NCBI GenBank assembly: GCA_937922745.1
Contig: CALAJO010000033.1
Coordinates: forward strand, 2,250-66,249
Reading direction: 5' to 3'
Length of the DNA: 64,000 nucleotides
Source: an uncultured cyanobacterium
Lineage (GTDB): Bacteria; Cyanobacteriota; Vampirovibrionia; Vampirovibrionales; JAGQHJ01
A program made the position numbers and the translations under genes. Of this stretch, positions 33,897 through 53,060 are shown piece by piece (position 1 is the first letter of the stretch; each line of letters opens with the position of its first letter). Under the pieces are notes generated by a model. That model saw only the letters and a program-made list of their open reading frames with translations, was not told the origin of the DNA and searched no databases.

Positions 33897-33904
33897 AAAG
33901 AACT

Positions 33905-34093: not shown

Positions 34094-34096
34094 TTG

Positions 34097-34384: not shown

Positions 34385-34395
34385 GGTGAGCCCCA

Positions 34396-36169: not shown

Positions 36170-36183
36170 ACAAGGAGAGTCCC

Positions 36184-36918: not shown

Positions 36919-37066
36919 CGCAACCATTAGCGCCCCTTTTTAGGGGGCTGATGCGCTACACACCCAACACATGGAAACCTGGCCGGGTGCGCCCGACAAC
37001 CTGTGTGGACGGTGTTTCTCGGTGATGTGGCCAACGTTACTCAAGAATTAACGGAGAAACTTGGCT

Positions 37067-38017
37067 ATGTCGAATGCAACCCCATCACGTCTTGGGGCGA
37101 TTAACGATACAACAGGTTCTTACGCCCAGGACAACGCTCTATTTCTCAAGGTCTATGCCGGGGAAGTTATGACGGCCTTCAAAGAAACCAACGTGATGGA
37201 AGACAAGCATATTATGCGAGTCATCCAACACGGGAAGTCCGCTCAATTCCCTGCAACATGGAAGGCCGATGCCGCTTACCACACGCCCGGTAACGAACTG
37301 AACGGTTCACAGAAAATCAAACATGCGGAAAGAATCATCAACATTGATGATCTTCTGGTGTCTGACACCTTCATCGCCAACATCGATGAGGCAAAGAATC
37401 ACTATGACGTTCGTTCCATCTACTCGACGGAACAAGGTCGAGCACTCGCCCGGAAGTTTGACAAACAACTGCTTCAGGTGGGTGTCCTTGCGGCTCGTGC
37501 TTCTGCAACGATTACGGGTGGTTTTGGTGGAACCAAACTGGTCAACGCTCAATTTGATATTGATGCGGAGTCCTTGGTTGCCGGTATCTTCAACGCTGCC
37601 CAGGTCATGGATGAAAAGGACATCCCGGAAGAAGACCGCTTTTGCTTCTTGAAACCGAAACACTACTACATGCTCGCTCAACTGACCAAAATCATGAACA
37701 AGGATTGGGGTGGTATGGGCGTCTATGCGGAAGGTAAGGTTATCAAAGTCGCAAACGTCACCATCGTTAAAACCAATAACCTGCCTAACTCCAACATTTC
37801 TGCCGTATCAGGTGAACAAAACACCTATAACGGTGACTTTACCAATACCGTGGCTCTGGTCATGCACCGATCCGCTATTGGTACAGTTAAACTGTTGGAT
37901 TTGGCAGTAGAGTCCGAGTACGAAATCTGGCGTCAAGGCACCCTCATGGTTGCAAAGTATGCCGTTGGACACGGCATCTTACGTCCTGAGTGTGCTGTTG
38001 AGCTGGCGAAAGCATAA
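37067..38017 (+). CDS. Major capsid protein (T7 gp10 analogue)
   Basis: The ATG at 37067 sits 10 nt after GGAG. LFLKVYAGEVMTAF...VIQHGKSAQFP matches the conserved N-terminal block of T7-like capsids. Confidence 0.9.
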   Translation: MSNATPSRLGAINDTTGSYAQDNALFLKVYAGEVMTAFKETNVMEDKHIMRVIQHGKSAQFPATWKADAAYHTPGNELNGSQKIKHAERIINIDDLLVSDTFIANIDEAKNHYDVRSIYSTEQGRALARKFDKQLLQVGVLAARASATITGGFGGTKLVNAQFDIDAESLVAGIFNAAQVMDEKDIPEEDRFCFLKPKHYYMLAQLTKIMNKDWGGMGVYAEGKVIKVANVTIVKTNNLPNSNISAVSGEQNTYNGDFTNTVALVMHRSAIGTVKLLDLAVESEYEIWRQGTLMVAKYAVGHGILRPECAVELAKA

Positions 38018-38031
38018 GGGAGGAACCGTAT

Positions 38032-38349
38032 ATGGCCATTAACCTTTTATCCGGTCAGACCTCAAACGGTTCCGGCAGTGCTGTCACACTCAACGCCAAA
38101 GAAGGCGGAAACAAAATCGGATTTAGCGCCTTCGGTACGTTCGGCAGTGGCACCATCACCATCGAACTGGCCTTGGATGGCACGAACTATACCGCTGTCA
38201 CCACCTTTACAGCCGCAGCTTACAAAATGGTTGAAATCGTGGCGGAAGCAGGGTCTAAGATTCGTGCAACCTTGTCTGGTGCAACCAGCCCGAACGTTAC
38301 AGTTCAGATGTCTGGTGCTTTTACTGGCATTACTCGAACTGACGCATAA
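38032..38349 (+). CDS. Small beta-rich protein downstream of the capsid gene (hypothetical, possibly capsid-associated)
   Basis: Own RBS AGGGAGGAACCGTAT and its own ATG. 105 aa rich in Gly/Thr/Ser/Ala. Confidence 0.5.
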   Translation: MAINLLSGQTSNGSGSAVTLNAKEGGNKIGFSAFGTFGSGTITIELALDGTNYTAVTTFTAAAYKMVEIVAEAGSKIRATLSGATSPNVTVQMSGAFTGITRTDA

Positions 38350-38359
38350 CACAAAACAC

Positions 38360-38400
38360 AGAGAGTCACTGGCTTTTGGCTGGTGGCTCTCTTGTTTTTA
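38360..38400 (+). terminator. Strong intrinsic terminator after the capsid block (Tphi-like position)
   Basis: AGAGAGTCACTGGC-TTTTG-GCTGGTGGCTCTCT followed by TGTTTTTATTT. Confidence 0.65.
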
Positions 38401-38414
38401 TTTGAGGATTTGAA

Positions 38415-38993
38415 ATGTCATCGACACCGCCGTTACTTACGATGCTGGAAGCTGTCAACATTATGCTTTCCGTGATCGGGGAAGCCCCAGTCAATACGTT
38501 AGAAGGGGCAGCGACCAACGATGTCATTCAGGCCACCTCTATCCTGAACGAAATCTCCCGTGAAGTGCAGTCGATGGGCTGGCATTTCAATACAGAGCGG
38601 GAGTATCCGCTGGTTCCTGATGTGAACCAGGAAATTATCCTGGCTTCCAATATGGTTCGGGTGGATGCGGATGCTTACCCGGAATTTGACGTGGTGCAAC
38701 GGGGATCCAAGCTATATGACAAGAAAAGTCACTCGTTCAAGTTCGATAGGACTCTGAAAGCGGAAATTATTTTCCTTCTGGGCTTCGAAGAAATTCCCCA
38801 GATTGCCCGGCAATATATCACCATTCGGGCAGCCCGGATTTTTCAGGACCGGATCGTCGGTTCTGAAGTGATTCACGGCTTCGGTGAAGACGATGAGAGA
38901 AAAGCCTATGCCGATTTGAAAGAAGCCGAAGGGGATACCGGGGACCCAACGATTTTTGATCACTATGACGCTGCAAGGCCCTTGATTAGGTAG
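38415..38993 (+). CDS. Tail tubular protein A (T7 gp11 analogue)
   Basis: LTMLEAVNIMLSVIGEAPVNTLEG...ILNEISREVQSMGWHFNTE is the conserved gp11 N-terminus. Confidence 0.85.
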   Translation: MSSTPPLLTMLEAVNIMLSVIGEAPVNTLEGAATNDVIQATSILNEISREVQSMGWHFNTEREYPLVPDVNQEIILASNMVRVDADAYPEFDVVQRGSKLYDKKSHSFKFDRTLKAEIIFLLGFEEIPQIARQYITIRAARIFQDRIVGSEVIHGFGEDDERKAYADLKEAEGDTGDPTIFDHYDAARPLIR

Positions 38994-39000
38994 GTTTGCC

Positions 39001-41370
39001 ATGCCGCTCATCAGTGGTTCCATCCCCAATTTAATCAATGGGGTGTCGCAACAGCCTGCTGCCATAAGGCTACCCTCCCAATCCGAAGAGCAGATCAATG
39101 CGTATTCCTCGGTGGTGGAAGGGCTCAAAAAGCGTCCACCTTTGGAGTATGTCGCTAAACTCAACAGCCTTCAGGTGGGAAGTGCGTTTGTCCTGACCAT
39201 TAACCGGGACACGTCTGAACGCTATGTGGTTATTGTCACCAATGGCGATTTGAAGGTGTATGACTTAACTGGGGTTCAGAAAACCGTCACGTTTCCCAAC
39301 GGAACGGCTTATTTAAATGCAACGGATCCCAAGTCCAGCTTTCGAGCCATTACCATTGCGGATTACACGTTTATGGTGAATCTCACCAAGATTCCTCAAC
39401 TCACAGCCTCCCTATCTCCCACCTATGGCAGTTCTGGACTGGTCTTGGTGAAGCAGGCCAATTCCAACAGCAATTACAAAGTCTTTGTGGATGGTGTCCA
39501 GAAGGCCAGCCATTCCACAACAACCAGTAACATCCAAACCGATTACATTGCAACCCAACTGGCATCTCAACTGGTAACCAACCTGGGAGCCGGATGGACT
39601 GTCACACGGGTAGAGTCCACCATTGAGATCAAGAAGAACGATGGAACAGCTTTTCGTTTGAGTGTCGAGGATAGCCAAGCAGGAACATCCCTCAAGGCGG
39701 CCAAGGAAAAACTCCAGCGATTTACAGATCTTCCTACTGTTGCCCCCAATGGGTTTATTATCGAAGTCACCGGAGACCAAAGTTCCAGTTTCGATAATTA
39801 TTTTGTGAAATTTGAGACCAATGATGCCGGAACCACGTTTGGCCCCGGTGTTTGGGTAGAAACCGTAAAACCGGGAATTAATTGGGAAATTGATCCGGCC
39901 ACGATGCCTTATGCCTTGATTCGGCAAGGGGATGGGACGTTCAAGTTTGAACAGATTACTTGGGGCAAACGGCTGGTCGGCGATCTGAAATCCGCTCCTG
40001 ACCCGTCTTTTATTGGAGCACCGATTAATGACATTGTATTCTACAAAAATCGGCTGGGCTTTTTAGCCGATGAGAATATCATCTTCTCACGGGCTGGCCA
40101 GTATTATGAGTTCTTCCCGGAAACGGTCACCACCATTCTGGATAGTGACCCCATTGATGTGGCGGCCAGTAGCAACCGGGTATCCATCTTGCGTCACGCC
40201 ATTCCGTTTGATGAAGACCTGCTCCTATTCTCCGATCAAACGCAATTCATTTTGCAGGGTGGTGATATTTTAACAGCCAAGACCGTTTCGATTACCCAGA
40301 AAACATCTTTTGATAACTCCAAGATGGCAAAACCTATTGGTGTAGGAAAGAACGTGTTGTTTGCCGTCACTAATGGTGAGTTTACCCAGGTCCGGGAATA
40401 CTTTGTTTCGGATTTAAACGAAACCAATGATGCTGCCGATATTACCGCTCACGTTCCGAAATACATTCCCAAGAATGTCTTTAAAATGGCCAATGCCACC
40501 AATGAAGATTTGGTGTGTACCATTACGACGGTTGAGCCTAACGCTATTTTTAGCTACAAGTTTTATTGGCGAGGGGACGAGAAATTGCAATCGGCCTGGA
40601 GCAAATGGACGTTTGGCAGTGATTGCACCATTCTGAACATCGACTTTATTGAGTCTATTTTATATGTGGTCACCCAACGGCCTGACGGGGTATTCCTGGA
40701 AAAACTCAATGTCTCTCCGAAACTGATTGACACTGATTCACGGTATTTAACCCACTTGGATCGCCGGGTTCAGGACAATACATCCGGCGTTAGTGTCTCA
40801 TATAATGCCGTGGATAACACCACCACCTGGACTTTACCTTATACCGTCTCAGGAACAATGCAGGTGGTGACCCGGTATAGTCTGACGGGATTGAACGAAG
40901 GGACCATCTTTCCGGTCATTCAACAAACCGGAAACACAGTGAAAGTAAGCGGCCAGTTTAATACCCAGGCGGTGTTTATTGGCCAACAATACGAAATGCG
41001 CTACCGGTTCAGTCACCAGTTTGTGAAAGAAAACAGTCAGGCCGGAGCTGGAAGCGGACAGGCCATTATTGGACAAGTGCGTTTGCAGATGCGGACTTGG
41101 ACGCTTTTATTTGAAGACACGGGGTTTTTCAAAGTGGAAGTCACGCCTAAATATCGAGCTACTTCCACCTATAAATATACCGGCAGTGTTTTGGGTTCCG
41201 GGAACAACCAATTGGGAACCATTCCGCTAGAAAACGGGACGTATATGTTTCCGGTCCAATCCAAAAACGATCAGGTCACTATTGACTTGGTGAACGATAC
41301 GTTTCTGCCATGCCACTTCTTAAGTGCCGAATGGGAAGCGCTGTTTGCCTCCAGGAGCCGTCGGTTCTGA
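39001..41370 (+). CDS. Tail tubular protein B (T7 gp12 analogue)
   Basis: 789 aa. The N-terminus LINGVSQQPAAIRLPSQSEEQINAYSSVVEGLKKRPP is typical of gp12-type proteins. Confidence 0.88.
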   Translation: MPLISGSIPNLINGVSQQPAAIRLPSQSEEQINAYSSVVEGLKKRPPLEYVAKLNSLQVGSAFVLTINRDTSERYVVIVTNGDLKVYDLTGVQKTVTFPNGTAYLNATDPKSSFRAITIADYTFMVNLTKIPQLTASLSPTYGSSGLVLVKQANSNSNYKVFVDGVQKASHSTTTSNIQTDYIATQLASQLVTNLGAGWTVTRVESTIEIKKNDGTAFRLSVEDSQAGTSLKAAKEKLQRFTDLPTVAPNGFIIEVTGDQSSSFDNYFVKFETNDAGTTFGPGVWVETVKPGINWEIDPATMPYALIRQGDGTFKFEQITWGKRLVGDLKSAPDPSFIGAPINDIVFYKNRLGFLADENIIFSRAGQYYEFFPETVTTILDSDPIDVAASSNRVSILRHAIPFDEDLLLFSDQTQFILQGGDILTAKTVSITQKTSFDNSKMAKPIGVGKNVLFAVTNGEFTQVREYFVSDLNETNDAADITAHVPKYIPKNVFKMANATNEDLVCTITTVEPNAIFSYKFYWRGDEKLQSAWSKWTFGSDCTILNIDFIESILYVVTQRPDGVFLEKLNVSPKLIDTDSRYLTHLDRRVQDNTSGVSVSYNAVDNTTTWTLPYTVSGTMQVVTRYSLTGLNEGTIFPVIQQTGNTVKVSGQFNTQAVFIGQQYEMRYRFSHQFVKENSQAGAGSGQAIIGQVRLQMRTWTLLFEDTGFFKVEVTPKYRATSTYKYTGSVLGSGNNQLGTIPLENGTYMFPVQSKNDQVTIDLVNDTFLPCHFLSAEWEALFASRSRRF

Positions 41371-41837
41371 TGCCTTACTTGAGATCGGCAACTATCGAGG
41401 ATGCGATTGCACTCTCGAAAAACTTACGTGCTGAAGATGAAGCCGAAGTGAAAGCCATGACGGGTGAAACCTCATTGGATGCTTTAACCCATGGGGTGCT
41501 GGCATCGGATCTACCCGTTAGCATTGTGGATGAGGATGGCCAGATTTTGGGTATGTTTGGGGCTGTCACAGCTTTCACACAACCACGCATTGGAACCGTC
41601 TGGATGTTGGCATCCCCGGACATCTTGAAATACAGACGGCGTTTTGCCAAAGAATCCAAGCAGTGGATAGAAGCCCTCCAAGAACATTACGACATCTTGT
41701 GCAATGTAGTGGATGAACGAAACACGGTCCATATCCGCTGGCTGCAATGGTGTGGCTTTACATTTATCCAGAGACACCCGGAATTTGGGGTGGAAAATCG
41801 TCCCTTTATTGAATTTGTGAGGATTAAACATGTGTAA
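41370..41837 (+). CDS. Internal virion protein A-like / acetyltransferase-fold protein (gp13 position)
   Basis: TGATG overlap with gp12. 155 aa. The call rests on synteny and on a DUF2833-like feel of the sequence. Confidence 0.45.
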   Translation: MPYLRSATIEDAIALSKNLRAEDEAEVKAMTGETSLDALTHGVLASDLPVSIVDEDGQILGMFGAVTAFTQPRIGTVWMLASPDILKYRRRFAKESKQWIEALQEHYDILCNVVDERNTVHIRWLQWCGFTFIQRHPEFGVENRPFIEFVRIKHV

Positions 41838-42429
41838 CCCAGCAACAGCCGTGTTGGCCCTGGGAGCCCTATCGATTGTCACCAGTGTTGCAACCGGCGT
41901 CATTCAGTATGTCGGGCAACAGCAGCAAGCCGAATCACAAGCACAATATCAATCGGCGCTTATGCAAGCTAGAAACCAGGAGATTCAAGACAATACTGCC
42001 ATTGCTAACGAAAGCTTTCTCCAACAGACTCAACAAATTAACCTTAGGCAACAGCAAGAGGATGAGAAAGCCTCACAGGACATTCAACAGGTTCAAATTG
42101 AAGCGGCCAAAGCCAGAGCAACCGCAAGAGTGTCCGCTGGTGAAGCCGGAGTTTCCGGTCTTTCCGTTGATAGTCTGCTTGCAGATTATTACCGTCAGGA
42201 AGATGTCTTCCGGGAAAGTGTCCGTCGAAACCGCCAACTGGGAAGGCTTCAGTCCAGAGAAGATATTAAGGGGCTGAAGGCACAGGCCGAAGGGCGGATT
42301 GCTTCCGTTCGTCCGTATGTTCCAGAACCCATCGTCCGGCCCAGCTTCCTGGGAACCGGCTTGCAGATCTTCACGGATGTGGCCACCAGAGGTTCTTCCT
42401 TGGCGGATCGGTTTAGGAGAGGGTCATGA
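41830..42429 (+). CDS. Internal virion protein B (gp14 analogue)
   Basis: N-terminal hydrophobic helix followed by a Gln-rich coiled coil. Position is syntenic with gp14. Confidence 0.55.
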   Translation: MCNPATAVLALGALSIVTSVATGVIQYVGQQQQAESQAQYQSALMQARNQEIQDNTAIANESFLQQTQQINLRQQQEDEKASQDIQQVQIEAAKARATARVSAGEAGVSGLSVDSLLADYYRQEDVFRESVRRNRQLGRLQSREDIKGLKAQAEGRIASVRPYVPEPIVRPSFLGTGLQIFTDVATRGSSLADRFRRGS

Positions 42430-44273
42430 AACGGCGTGCTCAAGTTGGGGACATCACCTCACCACAACCTTTGCAACCTCAAGCAAGGCCGGTAGATACC
42501 TATTACCAGCCACAGGAAGCCGGGGTGACACCTCCTGCCAGAACCAATAGCCTGCTCCAGCTAGCCGATGCGTTAAGTCAGATCCAGCCCGGCATTGATA
42601 AGTTTGTAACCAAGAAAAGCGATCAAATTCAGGAGGAAGAACTTAAGCGGGGTTCGGCAGCGGCGCTAAACAACAAGCTGGGATTCAATGAGGCCATTAA
42701 GCAGGGATTAATTCCTGCTGGTGTTTCTCCATGGTTTCGGATTGGGTTTCAACAGGAACGCCTTCGGGCGATTGGTCAGGAATATGATATCCAGCTTCGG
42801 GAAAAATGGGCGACCAGTGATGTTCGTAACTCTGACAAGCTGGAAGACTTTCAGAACTTCCTGCAAGATCAGCGAAGTGCTTTGTTTAACGGCCTGGGTA
42901 GTGATTTTGATAAACGGGATGTCCAAGATGTCTTGCTTCCCTTTGTTCAGAAGTCGGAAGCCAACTTAACCAATGAACACAGTAATTTCCGTCTCAAGCA
43001 AATTGAAGCCCAGGCTGAAGAAACCATGGCCACGGAAGTTGGAAATGTATTGGATGAATATTACAAGCCGGGCTTATCCGATAAAGACCGTTCGGCCATG
43101 TTGGCTCAGTTGGGGACAACCCTGACAGATCTGGGGAATCGTTCCGTCGGTCACGGGATGGTGGGAACTAAGGCCAATGAAATCCTGGTGGATGCCCTGG
43201 CCACGTATGCTTTGGACCATGAGGATATTCACGTTCGGGAACTGATGGATCAGATTAAAACTGGCAGTGGGGTTCTGGGTAAAACCGGTTATGCCCGTGA
43301 AAAATGGGCCAAAGTGGAAGACCAGATTTTGGATATTCAGGAGAAACGGGAACGCTTTTCTTGGGCCAAGGAAGACCGGGCGAAAGAGGAAAAAATTGAT
43401 ACGCTACAAAGCCGGATTATGATGAAGCTGATTCAAGACCCTACGGCAGACATCGTGGCCGATGTTAAAACCCTGGCGGTATTAGACCCGGAAAAGGCCA
43501 GAGCAATCTTTTCCTTCCAAGAGGCTCGACTGGATTCCCAATATAAAATCCGGGATAACCACTATCTCGTGACCGCCTTACAGGCTGGGATTTATACCAA
43601 CCAAACAACGCCTCACGATATCTTGATGTCCGTGGCCAATAAGGAAATCTCTGGCGATACCGGTGCTCGATTATTGGAAGACCTAAATCGCTTTCAACAG
43701 GATGGCCAGACCCGAACGGTGCTGGATAATGATTACCTCCGAATCCTTCGGGACAACTTGAAGAATGCCATAGTCAAAGGGGACGGGTTTGGTGGGTTTG
43801 ATAATGACTCCATCCTGAGAGCCAACCAAGCGGATATTCGCTTTGTGAAAGCGGCCCAGCAATACTTGCAAAAGAATCCCAATGCCGATCAGGAAGCCCT
43901 GTTTGACTATTTACGGGGCATTTACCAAGGTATCATCAATGACCCGGTTTATACCGATTCCAGTAAGCCTGTTCCTGGCAGTGAAGCAACGCCAAAACCG
44001 CAAGGCGGCACTTCATCCAAACCGTCCAGCCAACAGAAAAGACCAGCTTCCAGTTCATCAACACCAAAGACACAGAGCACGACATTTACACGACCCAAGT
44101 TTTACACCACGGTGGCTGCCTATAATGCAGCGGTGAAGTCCGGTGAGATTCAGAAACAAATAAACGATCTGGGTGTTCCCCCTCAGAACCGACAATTCTT
44201 TATGGAAAAGATGCGTCGCTATGCCGAAATCCAGGAACAACTCCAGAAAATCAGAAAGCTTAAAGGAGGGTAA
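42426..44273 (+). CDS. Internal virion (core) protein C (gp15 analogue)
   Basis: 615 aa with ATGA overlap to gp14. Called on synteny. Confidence 0.55.
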   Translation: MKRRAQVGDITSPQPLQPQARPVDTYYQPQEAGVTPPARTNSLLQLADALSQIQPGIDKFVTKKSDQIQEEELKRGSAAALNNKLGFNEAIKQGLIPAGVSPWFRIGFQQERLRAIGQEYDIQLREKWATSDVRNSDKLEDFQNFLQDQRSALFNGLGSDFDKRDVQDVLLPFVQKSEANLTNEHSNFRLKQIEAQAEETMATEVGNVLDEYYKPGLSDKDRSAMLAQLGTTLTDLGNRSVGHGMVGTKANEILVDALATYALDHEDIHVRELMDQIKTGSGVLGKTGYAREKWAKVEDQILDIQEKRERFSWAKEDRAKEEKIDTLQSRIMMKLIQDPTADIVADVKTLAVLDPEKARAIFSFQEARLDSQYKIRDNHYLVTALQAGIYTNQTTPHDILMSVANKEISGDTGARLLEDLNRFQQDGQTRTVLDNDYLRILRDNLKNAIVKGDGFGGFDNDSILRANQADIRFVKAAQQYLQKNPNADQEALFDYLRGIYQGIINDPVYTDSSKPVPGSEATPKPQGGTSSKPSSQQKRPASSSSTPKTQSTTFTRPKFYTTVAAYNAAVKSGEIQKQINDLGVPPQNRQFFMEKMRRYAEIQEQLQKIRKLKGG

Positions 44274-47200
44274 TGGTGAACCCTGATCAATTAGAAACCG
44301 AGGCCGCCCAACTCGAATCCGAGTTAATGGGTCTATCGCAACAACAGGCAACACCGGAAAACACCCCTGTTCCTCAAGAAGCTCAATTGGAAGAGATACC
44401 CCCTCAGGAAGAACCTGTCTTGAAGGGGCAGGTCAGTGCCCAGGGAAGCCCGAAAGAAGACAAAAGCTTCAACCTGTTGGATTTTTTACGGGATATTCTT
44501 ACAGGCATTATTGGTGGTGGTCGGAATGCCGTTCAAAATACCGGCAGCCTCATTCATGATTTGTCGGGTGGCGATTATCAACCCACCGTCTCCATTGGTC
44601 CGGCAGCCTCTCCCGAAGAGCAACAGGTAATCGATGAATCGCCCTTTAAGATTCCTGGTGTCTTTGCCTATGTCCCCTCAGATCTGGCTCAAAAACACGA
44701 TATCAAAAGCCAACAGATTATTGATCTGCCGGAAGTTGAGCAACCCAAAACCATTGCCGGGCAAATCACACAAGGCGTCACCCAATTTGGAGCCGGGTTT
44801 GTTGGGGGCGGTCGTTTGCTCCAGGGATTGAGCTGGGCCAAGGGAGCTGCTCCGTTAATCCGGGCAGGAACGGCAGGGGCTATTTCTGACTTCACTGTCT
44901 TTGATGCCCATGAGCAACGCCTCTCCAACTTGATTGAGCAATTCCCGGTTCTGCATAACCCCATCTCGGATTATCTCAAGGCGGATCCAAAAGACGCTCA
45001 AGCGGAAGGGCGTTTCAAAAACGTTCTGGAAGGTATTCTTCTGGGGGGAGCAACCGATCTGCTTTTTAAGGGCGTGAAACAACTTAAACAGGTTCGTCAG
45101 ATCCGGGCGACAGAAGGCGATGAGGCGGCGGCTAAGTTCCTAGCCAAGAATGTCGGGGAAGTCGATGATGTCCTGAAAAAGTCCAATGATGAACTGTTGG
45201 ATGACATCTTTGGTGTTTCAAAACCGAAACAGCAACGAGTGCCGGTTGAAGCCCGTGTTCAGGAAATTCCGTCACCCAAAACGGATGGGGCTGAAACAGC
45301 CTCAATAACAGCGGTGGTTCAGGAGCAACCGATACCCAGAAATACAACACCCCTCAATGAAGAACAGATTGCAGCGTTTCGAAAACAATTGCAAGAATCC
45401 GGCGGTAAAGAAGCGGATACCCTCATTGATTTCAATGCGGATACGATGGTGACGGGGAATGAGGTCAAGCAGGTTCTGGACACCATGTCCAAAATTAACC
45501 GAGAGGAGTTGTTTAAGCTCAAGGGCGGTACACAAAGCCTGGATGAGATTGAATACAAAGCGGTTCAGATTTTGGAGTCCGAAGGCAAGGACGTTGCTGA
45601 TCTGTTGGGAACCGATGCCACAAATCTGCTTACGTCGTTGGGACGAGATGCCAAGAATGTTAGTGAACAGGCGTCACGATTGGTTGCCGGAAAACAGTTC
45701 ATGCAGTCTCTTGCCCGAAGAATCAATGACTTGGCGATTAAAATTGATAGCGGTGTGGGAACCGACAAGGAGCAACTGGAACTCCTCAGGCATATCGACA
45801 TACTCTCTGATGTCGAAGCAAACTTAAAGGCCATCCAGACCGGCTCTGCACGAACCACAAGTGCCGGACGGATACGAACAGGGGATGTTCTTTTCGATGA
45901 GGATATTGCTGCCATTCTGGAGCAGGTAGGTGGTTCGGACAATGTGCGTAAGCTGGCCCGTCGGATTACAGGGGCTGGGAAAGACGGAGGCAATCGAGGT
46001 ATTATTCAACTGGTGCGTAAAAGCTGGCTGGATAAGCTGGTGGATGTTCACAATGAAGTCTGGATGAATGCCATTCTCTCTGGCCCGAAGACTCATGCGG
46101 TCAACATTTTAGGAAACGGTATCAACACGCTATTCTTGCCGGGGGAACGTATCCTGGGTGGGGCGCTTTCCGGGAACAAGGATGTCATTATCGAAGGAGC
46201 ATCCACCTATTATGGTTTGATGCAAGCCTTGGGAGACAGCTTCAATATGGCTTGGCGGTCCTTTCAGATGGAAGACAACGTGCTGGATCCCTTGGGACGA
46301 ATGTGGGATGCCGATAGCCGCCGGGCAATATCCGCTCGAAACTTCGACATGCCGGAAGGCTCCATGTTGGCTCATGGGGTAAACTGGCTGGGTAATTTGA
46401 CCCGTCTCTCTGGGCGCTTCCTGATGAGTGAGGATGAGTTTTTCAAACAGATCAACTACCGGGCTTCGGTTCGGGCCAAGGCCATTAAGGAAGGACTCCA
46501 ACAAGGCTTTACAGGTAAGGAATTAGGTGAATTTGTAGAGAATCGTTTTCAGCAAGCCTTTGATGAAAAGGGGCTGGCCACTCAGTTGGACCCGTTGAAA
46601 TACTCACGAGAAGCCACCTTTACTCAGGAACTCACAGACGATACGTTCTTGGGCAGTGTTGGCTCAACCATTCAAAAGGCGGTAAACCGTCATCCGGTCT
46701 TGGGACGGGCCATCTTTCCGTTTGTGAAAGTCCCTACCAACCTGCTTCAGTTTGTGGCGGATAGAACCCCCTTCATTGCTCCACTGAATCGGCAGTTTAG
46801 AACCGATATATTGGCTGGGGGTGAACGCCGTGCTCAGGCATTGGGGAAGGTTGCCACAGGCTCCATGTTTTATACCTATGCCACGATGCTGGCCATGGAA
46901 GGAAAAATCACCGGCTCCGGCCCCTCTGACCCTGAACTCCGGCAACAACTGATGAGTACCGGCTGGCGTCCTTATTCCTTTATGGATACGCTGCCGGATG
47001 GGTCCAAGAAATACACACCCTTTAATCGAATCGACCCCTTTGGCATGTTCTTTGGCTTGGTAGCAGACTTTGCTCAAACTGCCGGGCAGAATGATGAACG
47101 CTCCAACGAAGATTTGGCGACAGCCATGGTATTATCTCTGGCCAATAACATTAACAACAAAGCCTATTTCAAGGGCTTGGTAGATGTGATGTCCGTCTTT

Positions 47201-47911
47201 GGCTGGAATAACTACAATCAGGAGGGCTCTGCTCAACACCTGATTGAATCCCGGATGGCCTCTTATATTCCCAATTCTCTGCAAATCATGCGGGATGACC
47301 CTTATCTCCGGGAAACTCGGAACTGGATGGACCGAATCAACAACAAGCTGGGCTTCGGTCAATCCAAAGCGTTGGATCCTAAGCGGAATATGTTCGGTGA
47401 ACCTATCCTCTTACCCCCTGGTTATGGAGCTTTTGACGTTCAGCCTTTTGTCTCATCCACTCAGAAAAAAGATCCGGTTTTAGATGAGTTGGCCCGATTG
47501 ACTCACTTGGGCGTTCGTTTCACATTGCCTGCCAACACCATTCAGGAAGGACGAGTCGATCTCACTCAGTTTCGTAATGCCAATGGCCAGACAGCGGCAG
47601 ATAGACGGCGTGAGTTGATGAACGTTCAGATTAAAGGCCACCCTACATTGAAAGAAAAGCTTGCCGAAGTGATGCAATCCGACAAATACAAGCAAGCCTC
47701 TGATGATGTGGGTGATTATGACGGCGGGAAAGCCACCTTGTTGAAGCGTGTGTATGAAAAATACAAGCAGGCAGCTTTGATGCAACTGATGCAGGAAGAA
47801 TTCCTAAATGAAGCCGGTCAGACCCTCCGGGATACCTTCCAAACAGACCGTCGAAACAAGGTTCGGGTCTTACGCAATCAGCTAGACCAGCTTATCGACA
47901 TCCAAAAATAA
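44273..47911 (+). CDS. Internal virion (core) protein D (gp16 analogue)
   Basis: 1212 aa, the largest structural gene, with TAATG overlap. Called on synteny. No lytic transglycosylase motif recognised. Confidence 0.65.
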   Translation: MVNPDQLETEAAQLESELMGLSQQQATPENTPVPQEAQLEEIPPQEEPVLKGQVSAQGSPKEDKSFNLLDFLRDILTGIIGGGRNAVQNTGSLIHDLSGGDYQPTVSIGPAASPEEQQVIDESPFKIPGVFAYVPSDLAQKHDIKSQQIIDLPEVEQPKTIAGQITQGVTQFGAGFVGGGRLLQGLSWAKGAAPLIRAGTAGAISDFTVFDAHEQRLSNLIEQFPVLHNPISDYLKADPKDAQAEGRFKNVLEGILLGGATDLLFKGVKQLKQVRQIRATEGDEAAAKFLAKNVGEVDDVLKKSNDELLDDIFGVSKPKQQRVPVEARVQEIPSPKTDGAETASITAVVQEQPIPRNTTPLNEEQIAAFRKQLQESGGKEADTLIDFNADTMVTGNEVKQVLDTMSKINREELFKLKGGTQSLDEIEYKAVQILESEGKDVADLLGTDATNLLTSLGRDAKNVSEQASRLVAGKQFMQSLARRINDLAIKIDSGVGTDKEQLELLRHIDILSDVEANLKAIQTGSARTTSAGRIRTGDVLFDEDIAAILEQVGGSDNVRKLARRITGAGKDGGNRGIIQLVRKSWLDKLVDVHNEVWMNAILSGPKTHAVNILGNGINTLFLPGERILGGALSGNKDVIIEGASTYYGLMQALGDSFNMAWRSFQMEDNVLDPLGRMWDADSRRAISARNFDMPEGSMLAHGVNWLGNLTRLSGRFLMSEDEFFKQINYRASVRAKAIKEGLQQGFTGKELGEFVENRFQQAFDEKGLATQLDPLKYSREATFTQELTDDTFLGSVGSTIQKAVNRHPVLGRAIFPFVKVPTNLLQFVADRTPFIAPLNRQFRTDILAGGERRAQALGKVATGSMFYTYATMLAMEGKITGSGPSDPELRQQLMSTGWRPYSFMDTLPDGSKKYTPFNRIDPFGMFFGLVADFAQTAGQNDERSNEDLATAMVLSLANNINNKAYFKGLVDVMSVFGWNNYNQEGSAQHLIESRMASYIPNSLQIMRDDPYLRETRNWMDRINNKLGFGQSKALDPKRNMFGEPILLPPGYGAFDVQPFVSSTQKKDPVLDELARLTHLGVRFTLPANTIQEGRVDLTQFRNANGQTAADRRRELMNVQIKGHPTLKEKLAEVMQSDKYKQASDDVGDYDGGKATLLKRVYEKYKQAALMQLMQEEFLNEAGQTLRDTFQTDRRNKVRVLRNQLDQLIDIQK

Positions 47912-47979
47912 CCCATTTCAAGCCATTTACCCCACAGCCCTGACGAATCCGTTGGGGCTTATTACTTTGGAGGAAATCC

Positions 47980-49587
47980 ATGCCACTTAGCTACGTGCAA
48001 TATAACGGGGATGGGTCAACGGATACCTTCAACATCCCCTTCTCCTACATCAGCAAAAGCCATATCCAGGTGAAAGTGAATGGCGTTGTTGATTCCGGGA
48101 TTACCTTCCCCACCAGCTCCACAGTCAAAACCTCTTCTATTCCCAGTAGCGGCATTATTGTTGAAGTCCGAAGAATCACGCCAAACACTACCAAGCTGGT
48201 GGACTTTCAGGATGGAACCCTGTTATCAGAGGGTGATCTGGACAAGACATCGGATCAGATGCTCTTTGTGGTCCAGGAAACCGTGGATACGGTAGATTCA
48301 AAGCTCCCTTTGGACAGTGCTTCTAACAAGTGGGATGCCCAGAACAAAGTTATCAAGAACGTAGCCAATGGCACACAGTCAAACGATGCTGTTAATTACA
48401 ACCAAACACTGGGCATTGTTGATCAGGCAACAACTCAGGCCATTAATGCAGCGGCATCTGCCGGTAGTGCAGCGAGTTCAGCAACCACATCCCAGGACTG
48501 GGCTACGAAGACCAATGGAACAGTGGATGGTTCCGATTACAGTTCGAAAGCTTATGCCATTGGAGGCAGTGTCAATCCACCTACTGGTAATGCCAAAGAC
48601 TGGGCGAGTAAAACCACAGGAAACGTGGATGGCAGCGCCTTTTCATCCAAGGAATATGCCCAGGGAACCCAGGCTGGAACAGGTGGTTCTGCAAAGAATT
48701 GGGCGACTCAGACAGGCAGTGTCGTTTCTGGTCAGGCCACCGAATACTCTTCTAAAGAATATGCAACCGGTAATACCATTCCAACTGGATCCGCAAAAAA
48801 CTGGGCAAGCAAAACCAGCGGTAATGTTGATGGGACAGAATTCTCTGCCAAAGAGTATGCCCAGGGCATTCAAGCCGGAACAGGCGGCTCTGCTAAAGAC
48901 TGGGCCACGAAAGTGGAAGACTCCCCTGTTATCACTTCTCCCTCCAACAAGTATTCGGCCATGCATTGGGCTAACAAGGCGGCAGCTTCGGCAGCCTCCA
49001 TTAACATACCTGCTATAGCCGGAAACGGCTTGAAATACCTTCGGGCAAAGCAAGATGAAACGGGCTTTGAGTACCTTACCAAGCTCAATGTCAAAGCAGA
49101 CCTTCGAGAAATTGGGGAAGTATCAGACTTTTCAGGGGCCACGGCCCCAAGTGGTTGGCTTCTTTGTTATGGCCAAGCTGTGTCCCGAACAACCTATACA
49201 TGGCTCTTTAGTATCCTTGGAACTACTTATGGGGCTGGGGACGGCTCAACTACCTTTAACCTTCCTGATCTTCGGGGAAGATTTGCTTTAGGGAAGGATG
49301 ATATGGGCGGTTCAGCCGCTGGACGAGTGACCTCATCTTCAACCGGTGGTGCAAACTCTACAACATTGGGTGGTACGGGAGGTGCAGAAACACATACCTT
49401 AACCATTAGCCAAATGCCGAGCCACGATCATACCTATACGAAACTGGTTTCAAGTGGCCCGATTTCCACTGGGGGTTCTGCCTACCAGTTTAGTACCCAG
49501 AACACTGGTAATACAGGTGGTGGTTCAGCACACAGCAACACGCCTCCATGGATTTCACTCAACAAAATCATCTTTACAGGAGTCTAA
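47980..49587 (+). CDS. Tail fibre protein (T7 gp17-type N-terminal adaptor, internal fibre repeats, C-terminal phage-tail-collar domain)
   Basis: N-terminus YNGDGSTDTFNIPFSYI...VRRITPNTTKLVDFQDGTLL aligns with T7 gp17. It has 4-5 repeats of (D/N)WA(S/T)KT.G.VDG..(F/Y)S.KEYA. The C-terminus GWLLCYGQAVSRTTYTWLFSILGTTYGAGDGSTTFNLPDLRGR is a collar domain. Confidence 0.9.
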   Translation: MPLSYVQYNGDGSTDTFNIPFSYISKSHIQVKVNGVVDSGITFPTSSTVKTSSIPSSGIIVEVRRITPNTTKLVDFQDGTLLSEGDLDKTSDQMLFVVQETVDTVDSKLPLDSASNKWDAQNKVIKNVANGTQSNDAVNYNQTLGIVDQATTQAINAAASAGSAASSATTSQDWATKTNGTVDGSDYSSKAYAIGGSVNPPTGNAKDWASKTTGNVDGSAFSSKEYAQGTQAGTGGSAKNWATQTGSVVSGQATEYSSKEYATGNTIPTGSAKNWASKTSGNVDGTEFSAKEYAQGIQAGTGGSAKDWATKVEDSPVITSPSNKYSAMHWANKAAASAASINIPAIAGNGLKYLRAKQDETGFEYLTKLNVKADLREIGEVSDFSGATAPSGWLLCYGQAVSRTTYTWLFSILGTTYGAGDGSTTFNLPDLRGRFALGKDDMGGSAAGRVTSSSTGGANSTTLGGTGGAETHTLTISQMPSHDHTYTKLVSSGPISTGGSAYQFSTQNTGNTGGGSAHSNTPPWISLNKIIFTGV

Positions 49588-49591
49588 AACA

Positions 49592-50062
49592 ATGGCATTG
49601 AAAGCAAATTTTGTGAAAAACAACATTGGTTTACCTGTCCCAGATTGCTATATCAAGATTGAAACCGTCTTTTACGATAGCTTGGACAAGGTAATTCGTC
49701 TTGGTGTGGTCTTTTATGTCAACGAAGCTCAACGTTTAAACGATATCCGAGAAAAGCGAAAGCTGGCAGAAGTTGAGTTAGAAGGTAAAAAAGCGGAGAT
49801 TATAGCTGAGTTAAGTAAACCAGAAGCCGATGACAGCAAGTTGGAAACCTTGTATAGCGAGAAAAATACGCTGCAAGCTCAACTGGAAGCTGTTACTGGA
49901 GAATCCCCGTTCTTTGCCAAGGTATTTGAATTCCCAGTAACCGGAACTGAAGCTGAAAACATTGTGAGTCTTGGTTATCAGAAACTGAAAATCACTAACT
50001 TCGCTGGTGTGGATGATGGCAAGCTCATCGAGTTGGATTTCACCAAGGCATTGGATGTGTAG
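49592..50062 (+). CDS. Hypothetical protein (possible fibre assembly/accessory protein)
   Basis: ATG at 49592, 156 aa, located immediately after the fibre gene. Confidence 0.4.
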   Translation: MALKANFVKNNIGLPVPDCYIKIETVFYDSLDKVIRLGVVFYVNEAQRLNDIREKRKLAEVELEGKKAEIIAELSKPEADDSKLETLYSEKNTLQAQLEAVTGESPFFAKVFEFPVTGTEAENIVSLGYQKLKITNFAGVDDGKLIELDFTKALDV

Positions 50063-50064
50063 CC

Positions 50065-50289
50065 ATGCAGCAACGTTCCAACCAAGCGGAAATCTTCCTC
50101 CACCTGGGGCGATTGGAAGGCAAAGTGGATGCCATCCTCAGTAATCAAAGCCTTATTGTCAACCAGCTTGATGAACACGATAAACGAATCGGCAGCCTGG
50201 AAATGTTTAAAGCTTGGCAACTGGGTGCTTCTGCTGTCATTGCAAGCTTAGTAGCGTCCTGTATTGCCTACTTCAGAGGAGGAAATTAA
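50065..50289 (+). CDS. Holin-like small membrane protein (gp17.5 position)
   Basis: 74 aa with a single C-terminal TM helix (LGASAVIASLVASCIAYF). Called on synteny. Confidence 0.4.
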   Translation: MQQRSNQAEIFLHLGRLEGKVDAILSNQSLIVNQLDEHDKRIGSLEMFKAWQLGASAVIASLVASCIAYFRGGN

Positions 50290-50517
50290 ATGTCCTCACA
50301 CGATGAAAAGATGAAGGACCTCTATGATGCCTTTCTCAACGACCTGCTTGCCCTCGTTAAATCCGGCAAAGTCAAAGCCAGTGACCGGGCGGTGATACGT
50401 CAATTCCTCAGGGACCACGATATGGCTTCCAAACAACCGAAACCAACGACCTTGGAAGCCCTGGTAGATAAAATACCCCATTTCAATGACGACGATGAAG
50501 TCCCCGATGACCAATAA
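50290..50517 (+). CDS. Small terminase subunit (gp18 analogue)
   Basis: 75 aa with an acidic tail, located directly upstream of and overlapping the large terminase gene. Confidence 0.5.
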   Translation: MSSHDEKMKDLYDAFLNDLLALVKSGKVKASDRAVIRQFLRDHDMASKQPKPTTLEALVDKIPHFNDDDEVPDDQ

Positions 50518-52198
50518 ACCCAAAGACCCGTTAGCAGACTTCCGGGTCTTTTTATTTATCACCTGGAAGTTTCTGGGATTGCCTGACCCAACGCCCATCC
50601 AATATGACATTGCCCATTACCTGCAAAACATCTTCTACGGCAAGGGGCCAAGACGGGCTATCATCGAAGCATTCCGTGGTGTCGGAAAAAGCTGGATTAC
50701 GGTTACCTTTGTCTGCTGGGTTCTCTATATCAATCCTCAATTGAAGATCCTTGTTGTCTCTGCCTCCAAGTTTCATGCGGATAACTTCACGACCTTCTGT
50801 ATGCGTCTCATTCTGGAGATGCCTGAACTTCAGCACCTCAAGCCCAGAGAAGAACAGCGAAACTCCAAAGTCAGCTTTGACGTGGCACCAGCCAACCCGG
50901 ACCATTCCCCTTCAGTTAAGTCCGTAGGCATCACCGGGCAGCTCACCGGGAGCCGGGCAGACATCATTGTTGTCGATGACGTTGAAGTCCCCAACAATTC
51001 CATGACCCAGGTAATGCGAGAGAAGCTGGCTGAATCGGTTAAGGAGTTCGATGCCATCCTGAAACCCAATGGGATTGTGGTGTATCTTGGAACTCCACAA
51101 ACAGAGATGAGCCTTTACAACGTCCTCCCGGAACGAGGCTATGCTCTGAGAATCTGGCCAGCCCGTTACCCGGACAAGGATCTCCTGAGCTACTACGGAG
51201 ACCGACTCTCACCAAAGGTTCTCAAAGCCCTGGAAGGGAATGCTTTATTGGAGGGAAAACCGACAGACCCCAAAAGGTTCTCGGATTGGGACCTGATGGA
51301 GCGGGAAGCCTCCTATGGTCGTTCAGGCTTCCAGTTACAGTTTATGCTAAACACCCGCCTTTCAGATGCGGAACGCTATCCTCTAAAACTCAATGACCTC
51401 ATTGTGATGGACTGTGACTCGGAGATGGCTCCTGAGAAAGTCATCTGGGCTGGTTCACAGGAAACCAATATCAACGACCTCCCTAATGTGGGACTGGGTG
51501 GAGATAAGTTTCACCGGCCTATGGCGATTCAAGGCCAATGGATTCCCTATACAGGTTCTGTTATGGCCATTGACCCAGCGGGCCGGGGCAAGGATGAAAC
51601 CGCCTATGCCGTGGTAAAAATCATTAACAGCCAGTTGTTCTTATTGGAATCCGGTGGCTTTCACGGTGGTTATACGGAGGAGATTCTGGGGAAACTCTCT
51701 GAAATCGCCAAGCGGCAGAAGGTGAACAAGGTCATTGTGGAAGCCAACTTTGGGGATGGGATGTTCCTGCAACTCCTTAAGCCTGTCATGGCCAAGATAT
51801 ACCCAGTTACGATGGAGGAGATCCGAAGCACGGGGCAGAAAGAGAAACGAATCATCGATACTCTGGAGCCCGTGATGAACCAACATCGGCTTGTTGTTGA
51901 CCGTCGTTTGGTGGAACAGGACTACAAATCCGCCCAACAACGCCCTTCAGAACAAGCCCTGAAATACCAGCTCTTTTATCAGATGACCCGAATTACCAAA
52001 GACCGAGGCGCATTGGCTCACGATGACCGCTTGGATGCTCTGGCAATGGCCGTCGGGTACTGGGTGGAACAGATGGCACGAGACATTGACCGGGCTATTG
52101 AGGATGAGAAAGAACAAAGACTCAAGACTGCACTGGAATCGTTCATAAACCATGTCGTAGGAAGCAAGCCCAAAGGGAACACTTGGATGGACGTTTGA
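50486..52198 (+). CDS. Large terminase subunit (gp19 analogue)
   Basis: Walker A is AFRGVGKSW and Walker B is ADIIVVDDVE. A C-terminal RNase-H-like nuclease region is present (MAIDPAGRGKDETA...). The start is ambiguous (50486, 50495 or 50507). Confidence 0.92.
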   Translation: MTTMKSPMTNKPKDPLADFRVFLFITWKFLGLPDPTPIQYDIAHYLQNIFYGKGPRRAIIEAFRGVGKSWITVTFVCWVLYINPQLKILVVSASKFHADNFTTFCMRLILEMPELQHLKPREEQRNSKVSFDVAPANPDHSPSVKSVGITGQLTGSRADIIVVDDVEVPNNSMTQVMREKLAESVKEFDAILKPNGIVVYLGTPQTEMSLYNVLPERGYALRIWPARYPDKDLLSYYGDRLSPKVLKALEGNALLEGKPTDPKRFSDWDLMEREASYGRSGFQLQFMLNTRLSDAERYPLKLNDLIVMDCDSEMAPEKVIWAGSQETNINDLPNVGLGGDKFHRPMAIQGQWIPYTGSVMAIDPAGRGKDETAYAVVKIINSQLFLLESGGFHGGYTEEILGKLSEIAKRQKVNKVIVEANFGDGMFLQLLKPVMAKIYPVTMEEIRSTGQKEKRIIDTLEPVMNQHRLVVDRRLVEQDYKSAQQRPSEQALKYQLFYQMTRITKDRGALAHDDRLDALAMAVGYWVEQMARDIDRAIEDEKEQRLKTALESFINHVVGSKPKGNTWMDV

Positions 52199-52213
52199 GA
52201 ATCATCCTGTGAG

Positions 52214-52627
52214 TTACTTCTTGATAAGAGACTCCCCTTCTTTGGCTGCATCAAGTCTGTCTGCAAGTAGTGACCAGCAAGTTATCAACTCTGAATAGTT
52301 GCCACCGGGGTTATAACAACTCGACATCTCCGTGTTTAAGCGTTTTTTGTCGATTGTAGGATCATTCAAATAATGGCTAATTCGAGACAAGGCTCTTTTC
52401 TCTTGCTCCCAAAGTATCTCCAAAAGCTTTTTACATCTTGTTTCTGAACCTGACTTCAATAAGCAATCATTCCATTCTCGCTCTACAGCAGCTTTCTTAA
52501 GTCGAATAGCCGCACCCATTACTTTCTCTGGATCAACCGATGGGGAATCTTGGGCAAATCCAGGAAGTCCGAGAGCGATTAGCACTATGATGCAGTATAT
52601 GACATATCTTGGGTGTCTAAAAACCAT
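52214..52627 (-). CDS. Secreted Cys-containing helical protein (moron; possibly DUF1311/LprI-like)
   Basis: Signal peptide IYCIIVLIALGLPGFAQD and four Cys residues. RBS is GGAGA. The gene is convergent with terL. Confidence 0.5.
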   Translation of the reverse strand: MVFRHPRYVIYCIIVLIALGLPGFAQDSPSVDPEKVMGAAIRLKKAAVEREWNDCLLKSGSETRCKKLLEILWEQEKRALSRISHYLNDPTIDKKRLNTEMSSCYNPGGNYSELITCWSLLADRLDAAKEGESLIKK

Positions 52628-52640
52628 TATATGAATCTCC

Positions 52641-52660
52641 AGTGTGTAAAAGTGAGTAAT
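52641..52660 (+). repeat. Degenerate tandem repeat AGTGTGTAAA-AGTGAGTAAT (site C)
   Basis: Related to the AAGTGAGTAG unit and lies ~365 bp from the attR core. Confidence 0.35.
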
Positions 52661-52665
52661 TCCTA

Positions 52666-52695
52666 AAAACGGTAAAAGCCTCTTTGAGAGAGGCT
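52666..52695 (-). terminator. Intrinsic terminator downstream of the prophage tRNA-Val
   Basis: Minus strand reads AGCCTCT-CTCAA-AGAGGCT followed by TTTTACCGTTTTT. Confidence 0.5.
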
Positions 52696-52717
52696 CTTAT
52701 CTGTTTTTTTCTTTGAA

Positions 52718-52728
52718 AAGTGAGTAGT
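52718..52728 (+). repeat. Single AAGTGAGTAGT unit (site D)
   Basis: Exact copy of the second unit of sites A and E, ~300 bp from the attR core. Confidence 0.4.
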
Positions 52729-52767
52729 TTTTTGTTCAATTTTTTCACTTTACCTTTTGAAGAAATA

Positions 52768-52843
52768 TGGTGGGCGTTGACAGGCTCGAACTGCCGACAT
52801 CCTCCTTGTAAGGGAGGCGCTCTACCAACTGAGCTAAACGCCC
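52768..52843 (-). tRNA. tRNA-Val (anticodon UAC), prophage-borne, complete with encoded CCA
   Basis: GGGCGTTTAGCTCAGTTGGTAGAGCGCCTCCCTTACAAGGAGGATGTCGGCAGTTCGAGCCTGTCAACGCCCACCA folds as a canonical 76-nt cloverleaf (7/4/5/5-bp stems, loop CTTACAA). Confidence 0.93.
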
Positions 52844-52879
52844 GTAGCAGGTTTCCAGGGTTTGGAAGACTTTAATCAT

Positions 52880-52901
52880 AACTGAGTAAAAAGTGAGTAG
52901 T
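52880..52901 (+). repeat. Tandem 11-bp repeat AACTGAGTAAA-AAGTGAGTAGT (site E)
   Basis: Same architecture as sites A and B. It lies ~120 bp from the attR core, between the prophage tRNA and the core. Confidence 0.5.
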
Positions 52902-53021
52902 CCAGTCTTGCGAAGGAAAAAATCAGGGGCTATAATGCCCATGAGCCGTTGGCTTGAGATCATTGTACCAGCTAGCATTTTGGCTCTTTCTCCTTTCTGG
53001 ACTTTTACTAATCAAATCATG

Positions 53022-53029
53022 CTTGTAAG
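53022..53029. repeat. attR core (CTTGTAAG)
   Basis: Identical to 10308-10315. Confidence 0.8.
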
Positions 53030-53060
53030 GGAGGCGCTCTACCAACTGAGCTAATCGCCC
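53022..53060 (-). pseudogene. 5' half (nt 1-39) of the host tRNA-Val(UAC) at attR
   Basis: Minus strand reads GGGCGATTAGCTCAGTTGGTAGAGCGCCTCCCTTACAAG, then continues into non-tRNA sequence CATGATTTGATT. Confidence 0.9.

Follow-up and report, generated by a model that had tools for sequence, protein, structure and literature searches.

Lysogeny that depends on a phage-borne tRNA was described and experimentally proven in mycobacteriophages in 2024 (Guerrero-Bustamante and Hatfull, mBio, PMC10865867). In such tRNA-dependent lysogeny, a tyrosine integrase acts at a short core, the tRNA gene is not reconstructed, and the lysogen needs the cognate phage tRNA to survive (PMC10865867). The cores span 8–17 bp, with 8 bp in Gaia and 10 bp in Fionnbharth, and deleting the phage tRNA from Fionnbharth abolished stable lysogeny and left lytic growth in place (PMC10865867). 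The authors predicted that the strategy also occurs outside the Actinobacteria, citing Lj965 (PMC10865867). In a survey of Sinorhizobium meliloti, two prophages like Mesorhizobium phage vB_MloP_Lo5R7ANS were reported to inactivate tRNA-Leu(UAG) and to carry a replacement (PMC11476347; PMC12429752). In canonical tRNA-targeting elements, the 3′ part of the tRNA directly adjoins the crossover point on the element, and the gene is thereby regenerated (PMC4383910). Here, we analysed a 64,000-nt stretch of DNA (the window, by which we mean the whole stretch) that carries a T7-like temperate prophage of ~42.7 kb (10316..53021), bounded by two halves of a host tRNA-Val(UAC) gene. We consider it highly probable that this phage lysogenises its Vampirovibrionia (Melainabacteria) host in the tRNA-dependent manner.

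The split host tRNA and its phage-borne counterpart

The two prophage junctions were read directly from the sequence. At the attL junction lies the 3′ half of the host tRNA-Val(UAC), now displaced, which covers positions 32–76 with the encoded CCA (10271..10315, minus strand; CTTACAAGGAGGATGTCGGCGGTTCGAGCCCGTCATCGCCCACCA, read from 10315 to 10271). The attR junction contains the 5′ half, positions 1–39 (53022..53060, minus strand; GGGCGATTAGCTCAGTTGGTAGAGCGCCTCCCTTACAAG, read from 53060 to 53022). The only overlap of the two halves is the 8-bp core CTTACAAG, which corresponds to tRNA positions 32–39 and whose plus-strand copies lie at 10308..10315 in attL and 53022..53029 in attR. The reverse-complemented halves, joined through CTTACAAG, gave a 76-nt cloverleaf (−30.9 kcal/mol) that ARAGORN identified as tRNA-Val(tac). 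The attB site thus lies within a host tRNA gene, and the joining of the halves into a 76-nt tRNA-Val(UAC), put forward in the original prediction, was borne out.

The same prediction held that neither junction restores a tRNA, and the junction sequences were indeed as it gave them. In the tRNA sense, attL reads ...CTCATGG/CTTACAAG/GAGGATG and attR reads ...CCTCC/CTTACAAG/CATGATTTG. The tRNA homology ends after the 8-bp core, with CATGATTTG... following at attR and ...CTCATGG preceding at attL, and a short inverted repeat, TCATG/CATGA, flanks the attP core. ARAGORN called no tRNA at either junction of the window. The Rfam tRNA model scored 19.1 bits on the attR junction, below the gathering score of 29, and gave no match at attL, where the 3′ half stands alone. 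The attP of the window does not carry a tRNA 3′ segment contiguous with the crossover, which is the hallmark of the canonical, tRNA-regenerating elements. Since the homology does not extend beyond the core, both junctions would be non-functional, and the sequence indicates that the host gene now consists of two dead halves with 42.7 kb between them.

ARAGORN located four tRNA genes in the window, and the sole tRNA-Val among them, a (tac) gene at 52768..52843 on the minus strand, lies inside the prophage. This phage-borne tRNA-Val(UAC) is complete, with an encoded CCA and A73; it scored 70.1 bits (E 3e-15) against Rfam RF00005 and folds into a cloverleaf of −29.0 kcal/mol. It is separated from the attR core by 178 bp (52844..53021), as had been claimed, and it stands in the same orientation as the split host gene, downstream of the host 5′ half. 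The two tRNAs have an identical 45-nt stretch in common, and the phage copy departs from the rejoined host gene only by A>T at position 6, T>A at 67, G>A at 52 and C>T at 62. These four differences form two compensatory pairs, 6:67 and 52:62, with none elsewhere, exactly as anticipated.

About 70 nt downstream of the phage tRNA, a terminator scan found an intrinsic terminator-like hairpin with a T-run (52673..52699, minus strand). A sigma-70-like promoter candidate, TGGACT-18-TATGAT (52875..52904, minus strand), was picked out by consensus scan only, with 9/12 matches; it ends 31 nt upstream of the tRNA, and a copy of the putative arm motif discussed below (52890–52899) falls within its spacer. 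A TATGAT/TATGTT-like element is also present upstream of the tRNA in two related prophages, L170 and L169. In addition, the host tRNA promoter region (53061–53160) is still upstream of the phage tRNA after integration. On the plus strand, the consensus scan gave another sigma-70-like candidate, TTGCGA-17-TATAAT (52908..52936; 10/12 matches), which faces int across the attP core; integration would disconnect int from it.

We also observed that the phage tRNA forms direct repeats with both host halves. The segments 53022–53060 and 52805–52843 match over 39 nt with one mismatch and lie 217 bp apart, and the segments 10271–10315 and 52768–52812 match over 45 nt with three mismatches and lie 42.5 kb apart. 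Recombination at either pair would produce a functional hybrid tRNA; at the 39-nt pair it would lock the prophage in, and at the 45-nt pair it would delete it.

Related prophages and the arms of attP

We defined the prophage family by integrase homologues of 44–90% identity and TerL homologues of 77–84% identity. The integrase homologues adjoin split tRNA genes in L161, L162, L172 and L163. L161 and L162 come from another genome and from an independent Logan assembly, with an Int that is 88% identical; in both, the tRNA-Val(UAC) 3′ half and the phage sequence next to it are those of the window, ...CCTTGTAAG/CCATGAGAGCAT. In L169 (GCA_039794365.1, contig 2), a complete tRNA-Ile(GAU) is followed at ~230 bp by the 5′ half of a host tRNA-Ile, cut at CTGATAAG. 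L192 (GCA_006844825.1) repeats the design of L169 with another tRNA-Ile(GAU), the host 5′ half again being cut at CTGATAAG. L170 and L172 are the two ends of a third prophage, in which a full tRNA-Val(CAC) lies inside attR and the halves of the host tRNA-Val(CAC) overlap only in the 8-bp TTCACACG. In every family case, and across independent assemblies (L161/L162, L169, L170 with L172, and L192), the break falls at loop positions 32–39.

The attR end could be read in four elements (the window, L169, L170 and L192), and in all four the anticodon of the phage tRNA is that of the split gene. Each of these ends carries one tRNA only, co-oriented with the orphaned 5′ half and downstream of it. The replacement of the tRNA in place of its rebuilding was seen in the window and at four other att ends of the family, including those of the tRNA-Ile(GAU) and tRNA-Val(CAC) members that carry these very tRNAs; likewise, a full tRNA beside attP, for which the original prediction had suggested a search in other integrase-bearing T7-like phages, was present in L169, L170 and L192. 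In the Val(CAC) member, the phage and host tRNAs differ at 25 of 75 positions, which argues that the phage has long carried this gene rather than having copied it recently from its target. Moreover, the four TerL-proximal att regions align with one another in the order terminator hairpin, motif, CACT-TAC-TTG-AGAA block, tRNA, motif, CTAAT...ATCAT and core, the hairpin thus being common to the window, L169, L170 and L192. A 24-kb metagenome contig, P0066, has TerL, a 514-bp gap and the Int pair in succession, which by gene order alone corresponds to the unintegrated attP.

The motif in these alignments was examined as a candidate arm-type site. The 10-bp sequence AAAGTGAGTA has eight matches in the window against 2.9 expected, a number that none of 100 shuffles reached. 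A tandem pair with 11-bp spacing (10445..10465, plus strand) lies in the P′ arm, within the 5′ end and first codons of int, and this layout recurs in L172, L163 and L161. The distal P arm has two copies (52649–52658 and 52717–52726, plus strand), both beyond the 3′ end of the phage tRNA, and one more sits between the tRNA and the core (52890–52899). P-arm pairs are also found in L169 (12439/12506) and L170 (12431/12485), and the motif varies from phage to phage: it reads AAAGTGAGTA in the window, AAAGTGAGGA in L169, AAAGTGTGGA in L170 and AAAGTGGGTCA in L192. In the relatives, exact copies occur only in the att arms. The repeats thus look like lambda-type arm sites in their layout, being present on both arms and family-wide, although the N-terminal domain of Int is HTH_17 and not the lambda-type arm-binding fold; a role in integrase binding is what we infer for them. 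This layout places the tRNA gene physically inside attP. We also considered the motif as a promoter of the phage RNA polymerase and rejected it, as the relatives have no exact copies across ~12 kb of late genes.

L172 and L163 carry further tRNA remnants. In L172, an orphan tRNA 3′ end, TGGTGGGCGATACTG (5785–5800), lies ~70 bp outside the attL 3′ half and is probably the scar of an earlier integration or excision at the same tRNA-Val(CAC) locus. In L163 (GCA_016712355.1, JADJRF010000005.1; 9430–9640), a tRNA-Ile(GAU) 3′ half runs directly into the P′ arm, which is followed by a frameshifted int; the point of fusion is CTTATCAG/CCATG. The other flank of this half aligns with the phage P-arm framework (terminator and AAAGTGAGT motif), and the half itself resembles the phage tRNA-Ile of L169, which means that a phage-borne tRNA had itself been the recombination partner. 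The junction could have arisen by entry of a second phage into the tRNA of a resident prophage, or by an internal deletion that produced a canonical attP with a 3′ half. Because a phage-type tRNA-Ile 3′ half is joined here to the core and P′ arm, one may conceive of the tRNA and the attP core as one exchangeable cassette, in which the P-arm tRNA is itself an integrase substrate, capture of a new tRNA gene by the P arm reprogrammes the target site by way of Int-mediated exchange with the neighbouring core, and canonical and tRNA-dependent forms of attP interconvert. We regard this idea as rather improbable; if true, it would explain how the family moves among Val-UAC, Val-CAC and Ile-GAU with matching cargo. 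At the least, the L163 junction hints at how targets and cargo might co-evolve.

Proposed mechanism and competing explanations

In the mechanism that we propose, the HTH_17 tyrosine integrase would recombine the 8-bp attP core CTTACAAG with anticodon-loop positions 32–39 of the host tRNA-Val(UAC), probably using the AAAGTGAGTA arm-type sites on either side of attP and perhaps also the second recombinase described below. Strand exchange would take place within the 8-bp overlap and would leave both junctions non-functional. Integration would place the full tRNA-Val(UAC) built into the P arm on the same strand as the host 5′ half and 178 bp downstream of it. Its own promoter-like site, the surviving host tRNA promoter, or the two together may drive its transcription, after which it would undergo ordinary 5′ and 3′ processing. 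Precise excision would restore the host gene.

The host flanks of the prophage encode a GNAT acetyltransferase, an aconitase and a tRNA-Thr/Tyr/Thr-tuf cluster. Among the homologues of the aconitase (64–79% identity) are proteins assigned by annotation to Vampirovibrionales, Vampirovibrio, Melainabacteria or Cyanobacteria, and the relatives of the phage TerL and Int come from metagenome-assembled genomes (MAGs) of the same kind; on these grounds, the host is a member of the Vampirovibrionia, a non-photosynthetic, partly predatory sister lineage of the Cyanobacteria. The genome of Vampirovibrio chlorellavorus has 41 tRNA genes in all, so isoacceptors would be mostly single-copy, and a unique tRNA-Val(UAC) is plausible in the present host as well. 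If it is unique, the phage copy would be essential for the lysogen, and dependence of the host on that copy appears likely.

The original prediction went further and, for the case of a single-copy isoacceptor, suggested an addiction-like stabilisation of the lysogen. That part fared poorly. Precise excision would rejoin a perfect host tRNA, and recombination at the 39- or 45-nt repeats would leave a working hybrid, which makes addiction to the whole prophage weak. Selection would act solely against partial deletions in which the phage tRNA is lost. What the arrangement would protect from decay is thus the end of the prophage nearest the tRNA, and the prophage as a whole would not be addictive.

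We must also note the points that weigh against tRNA-dependent lysogeny at this locus. Expression of the phage tRNA is something that we infer from sequence, and the promoter candidates are weak consensus matches. The host may have a second tRNA-Val(UAC) elsewhere in its genome. A conspecific non-lysogen with an intact attB was not found: an aconitase-based scan of GTDB genomes gave at most 62% identity among the matches listed, exact look-ups of two host proteins returned no match, and the closest aconitase homologues (76–79% identity) were not syntenic and had no tRNA nearby. A tRNA-pattern scan did find an intact 73-nt sequence identical to the rejoined host gene in nine metagenome contigs, all in unrelated contexts. 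Nor was the phage family found in IMG/VR or among GenBank phages. Megablast against GenBank phages gave no match, searches of IMG/VR with the integrase alone and with an integrase alignment gave no relatives, and a search with a 17-nt attP pattern returned chance matches only. TerL relatives in IMG/VR reached at most 65% identity and were without tRNA-Val, and a 43-kb ENA contig, L171, stops short of the att region. For the free phage, P0066 gave the gene order only.

The phage tRNA could instead be kept mainly for the lytic cycle, as a codon supply or as a decoy or replacement against anticodon nucleases, with the match to the target being secondary and the host having other copies of tRNA-Val(UAC). 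Such roles are widely proposed for phage tRNAs (PMC10865867). Nevertheless, there is exactly one tRNA per phage at this locus, it lies inside attP co-oriented with the target gene, and it is the isoacceptor split by the same phage at all four readable attR ends (Val-UAC, Val-CAC and Ile-GAU twice). This one-to-one covariation of cargo and target is predicted by complementation and not by codon supply, and we think a mainly lytic purpose unlikely. The two roles are not mutually exclusive, and a lytic or anti-defence role is possible as an additional function. The junctions could also be the product of aberrant integration at a secondary site by a phage whose normal attP rebuilds the tRNA. The tRNA 3′ half fused directly to the core in L163 does resemble a canonical attP; however, that junction lies in a decayed region ridden with insertion sequences, the junction of the window recurs identically in a second lysogen whose Int is 88% identical (L161/L162), and register 32–39 is also used by the Val-CAC and Ile-GAU members. 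An accident of this kind is thus very unlikely.

As the window comes from a metagenome-type contig and the host and internal tRNAs are identical over 45 nt, it may be asked whether the internal tRNA is host DNA, such as a neighbouring tRNA-Val of a tandem pair that was taken in through rearrangement, or whether the assembly is chimeric at tRNA repeats. Plain insertion into such a pair cannot account for a full copy within the element together with a 3′ half at a distance of 42.7 kb, and the breaks fall at the 8-bp core beside unique phage sequence and not at tRNA–tRNA repeat boundaries. On either side of the internal tRNA, the sequence matches the phage frameworks of relatives in alignment but does not match host flanks, and the same design is found in independent assemblies, with different hosts and different tRNAs. 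Capture of host DNA, which the original prediction had itself named as a threat, and chimerism are therefore effectively refuted. A phage origin of the internal tRNA is supported by the conserved arm-type repeats on both its sides and by a surrounding framework that can be aligned among members from different hosts. The other threat it had named was that the host halves, both intact in sequence, are still used, as separate transcripts joined in trans after the manner of the Nanoarchaeum split tRNAs. We rejected this. The best duplex between the flanks (−18.4 kcal/mol) is no better than that of shuffled controls (−17.7 ± 3.6), their only complementarity is the 5-bp TCATG/CATGA repeat, and no promoter is evident for the 3′ half. 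Splicing of such tRNA halves is not known in bacteria. We hold the chance of trans-joining to be practically negligible, and tRNA-dependent lysogeny remains by far the best account of the locus.

Gene content and comparison with known systems

The genes of the prophage were annotated with PHROGs and Pfam. The minus-strand arm encodes a family A DNA polymerase (21718–23514), a primase/helicase (24072–25688) and a single-subunit RNA polymerase (28252–30732; phrog_414, 1.6e-273), along with a 5′–3′ exonuclease. The plus-strand arm encodes the portal (34396–35952), the major capsid protein (37061–38017), the tail tube (39001–41370), a T7 tail fibre (47980–49587) and TerL (50486–52198). The set as a whole, with a single-subunit RNA polymerase and T7-type replication, capsid, tail and terminase genes, is of the Autographiviridae type. 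The collinear, one-strand order of that group is absent; the RNA polymerase and replication genes lie on the minus strand and the structural and packaging genes on the plus strand, diverging from ~33–34 kb. These divergent arms (19842–52198) are arranged around a ~1.1-kb non-coding gap (33000–34090), in which the arm motif occurs twice in tandem, at 33480 and 33491, and the DNA-binding specificity of the att arms may also act at this central control region. Between TerL and the phage tRNA, a 137-aa open reading frame (52214–52627, minus strand) has a hydrophobic N-terminus and no family match; at its position, L169, L170 and L192 have an 87–114-aa HTH_3/HTH_31 regulator on the opposite strand.

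Next to the other junction, 95 bp from the attL core, begins the gene for the tyrosine integrase with an N-terminal, excisionase-like HTH_17 domain (10411..11532, plus strand; PF00589 3.4e-34, PF12728 1.9e-9). A second tyrosine recombinase (11516..12406, minus strand; PF00589 1.3e-32) is convergent with the first and overlaps it, and this pair is kept in the window, L161, L162, L172, L163 and the P0066 contig. Only the first recombinase of the pair has the HTH_17 domain; the second is a candidate for a hetero-oligomer partner, a directionality factor or a resolvase. Variable cargo adjoins the integrases or TerL across the family (12481–19728 and 32081–32977 in the window, 12121–18794 in L161, 11701–16894 in L171, and P0066). 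In the window, it comprises a CsoR-like metal repressor, a candidate ABC-3C/PDC-M68 defence pair (PDC-M68B 2e-170) and an ArdC-like anti-restriction protein. L161 carries a BsobI-type restriction-modification system, an ImmA/HTH pair and CBASS (SMODS and SAVED), L171 carries DUF4420-Z1-HATPase_c_3, and P0066 an MmeI-type restriction-modification system.

Experimental demonstration of tRNA-dependent lysogeny is so far confined to actinobacteriophages, and our data extend the strategy to a T7-like prophage family that is widespread in Vampirovibrionia MAGs. The strategy appears to be general and repeatedly evolved. The three matched switches of target and cargo offer a clean comparative system for the co-evolution of integration specificity and cargo. 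With the integrase, 8-bp core, arm sites and replacement tRNA all within ~1.5 kb, the locus is a natural candidate for an integration vector in minimal-tRNA organisms. For annotation, prophage and island finders that expect a regenerated tRNA and a displaced fragment will place the limits of such elements wrongly.

The closest parallel is with the actinobacteriophages (Fionnbharth K4, LeBron L1, Gaia X, Gordonia CQ2/DL; PMC10865867). Like the window, these have a tyrosine integrase with arm-type sites (putative in the window), an attB in a tRNA gene, a short core (8 bp in the window), no rebuilding at either junction and a phage tRNA of the same anticodon. In both groups, target and cargo switch together between close relatives, as in BrutonGaster and OneUp on the one side and among Val-UAC, Val-CAC and Ile-GAU on the other. 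By sequence, every defining feature of tRNA-dependent lysogeny that can be tested in this way is present in the window, the arm-type sites being putative. The two groups differ in that the actinobacteriophages are siphoviruses of Actinobacteria, whereas the window holds a podovirus-type, T7-like phage of a Vampirovibrionia host. The integrase of the window, with its HTH_17 N-terminus, is below 30% identity to any GenBank phage integrase and is unrelated by sequence to those of the actinobacteriophages; a second conserved recombinase gene also sets the window apart. The tRNA of the window lies within attP itself, in the P arm at 178 bp from the core and in the orientation of the split gene, whereas that of Fionnbharth overlaps gene 37, away from attP. 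Finally, the necessity of the tRNA is proven in the actinobacteriophages and presumed for the window.

The Lo5R7ANS-type prophages resemble the window in being temperate phages of the Autographiviridae type that integrate in the central part of a tRNA and carry their own cognate tRNA. TerL of Lo5R7ANS is 56% identical to that of the window, and no close similarity was detectable between the integrases. The genome of Lo5R7ANS is collinear and has int in its early region, at ~1.4 kb from the tRNA and separated from it by restriction and methylase genes; in the window, int and the tRNA directly flank attP, and the genome has two divergent arms. The Lactobacillus johnsonii prophage Lj965 is likewise reported to lack tRNA rebuilding at the junction and to encode tRNAs able to complement. 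However, it is a siphovirus of Firmicutes with four tRNA genes, for which no single cognate tRNA embedded in attP has been described. The canonical tRNA-targeting elements (Williams 2002 sublocation classes; Islander-type) have in common with the window an anticodon-loop crossover, a tyrosine integrase and a displaced 3′ fragment at one end, but in the window the homology stops after 8 bp and there is no regeneration. The mechanism itself is thus already known; what this locus adds is the phage lineage and the host phylum, a compact tRNA embedded in attP, and switching among three tRNA targets.

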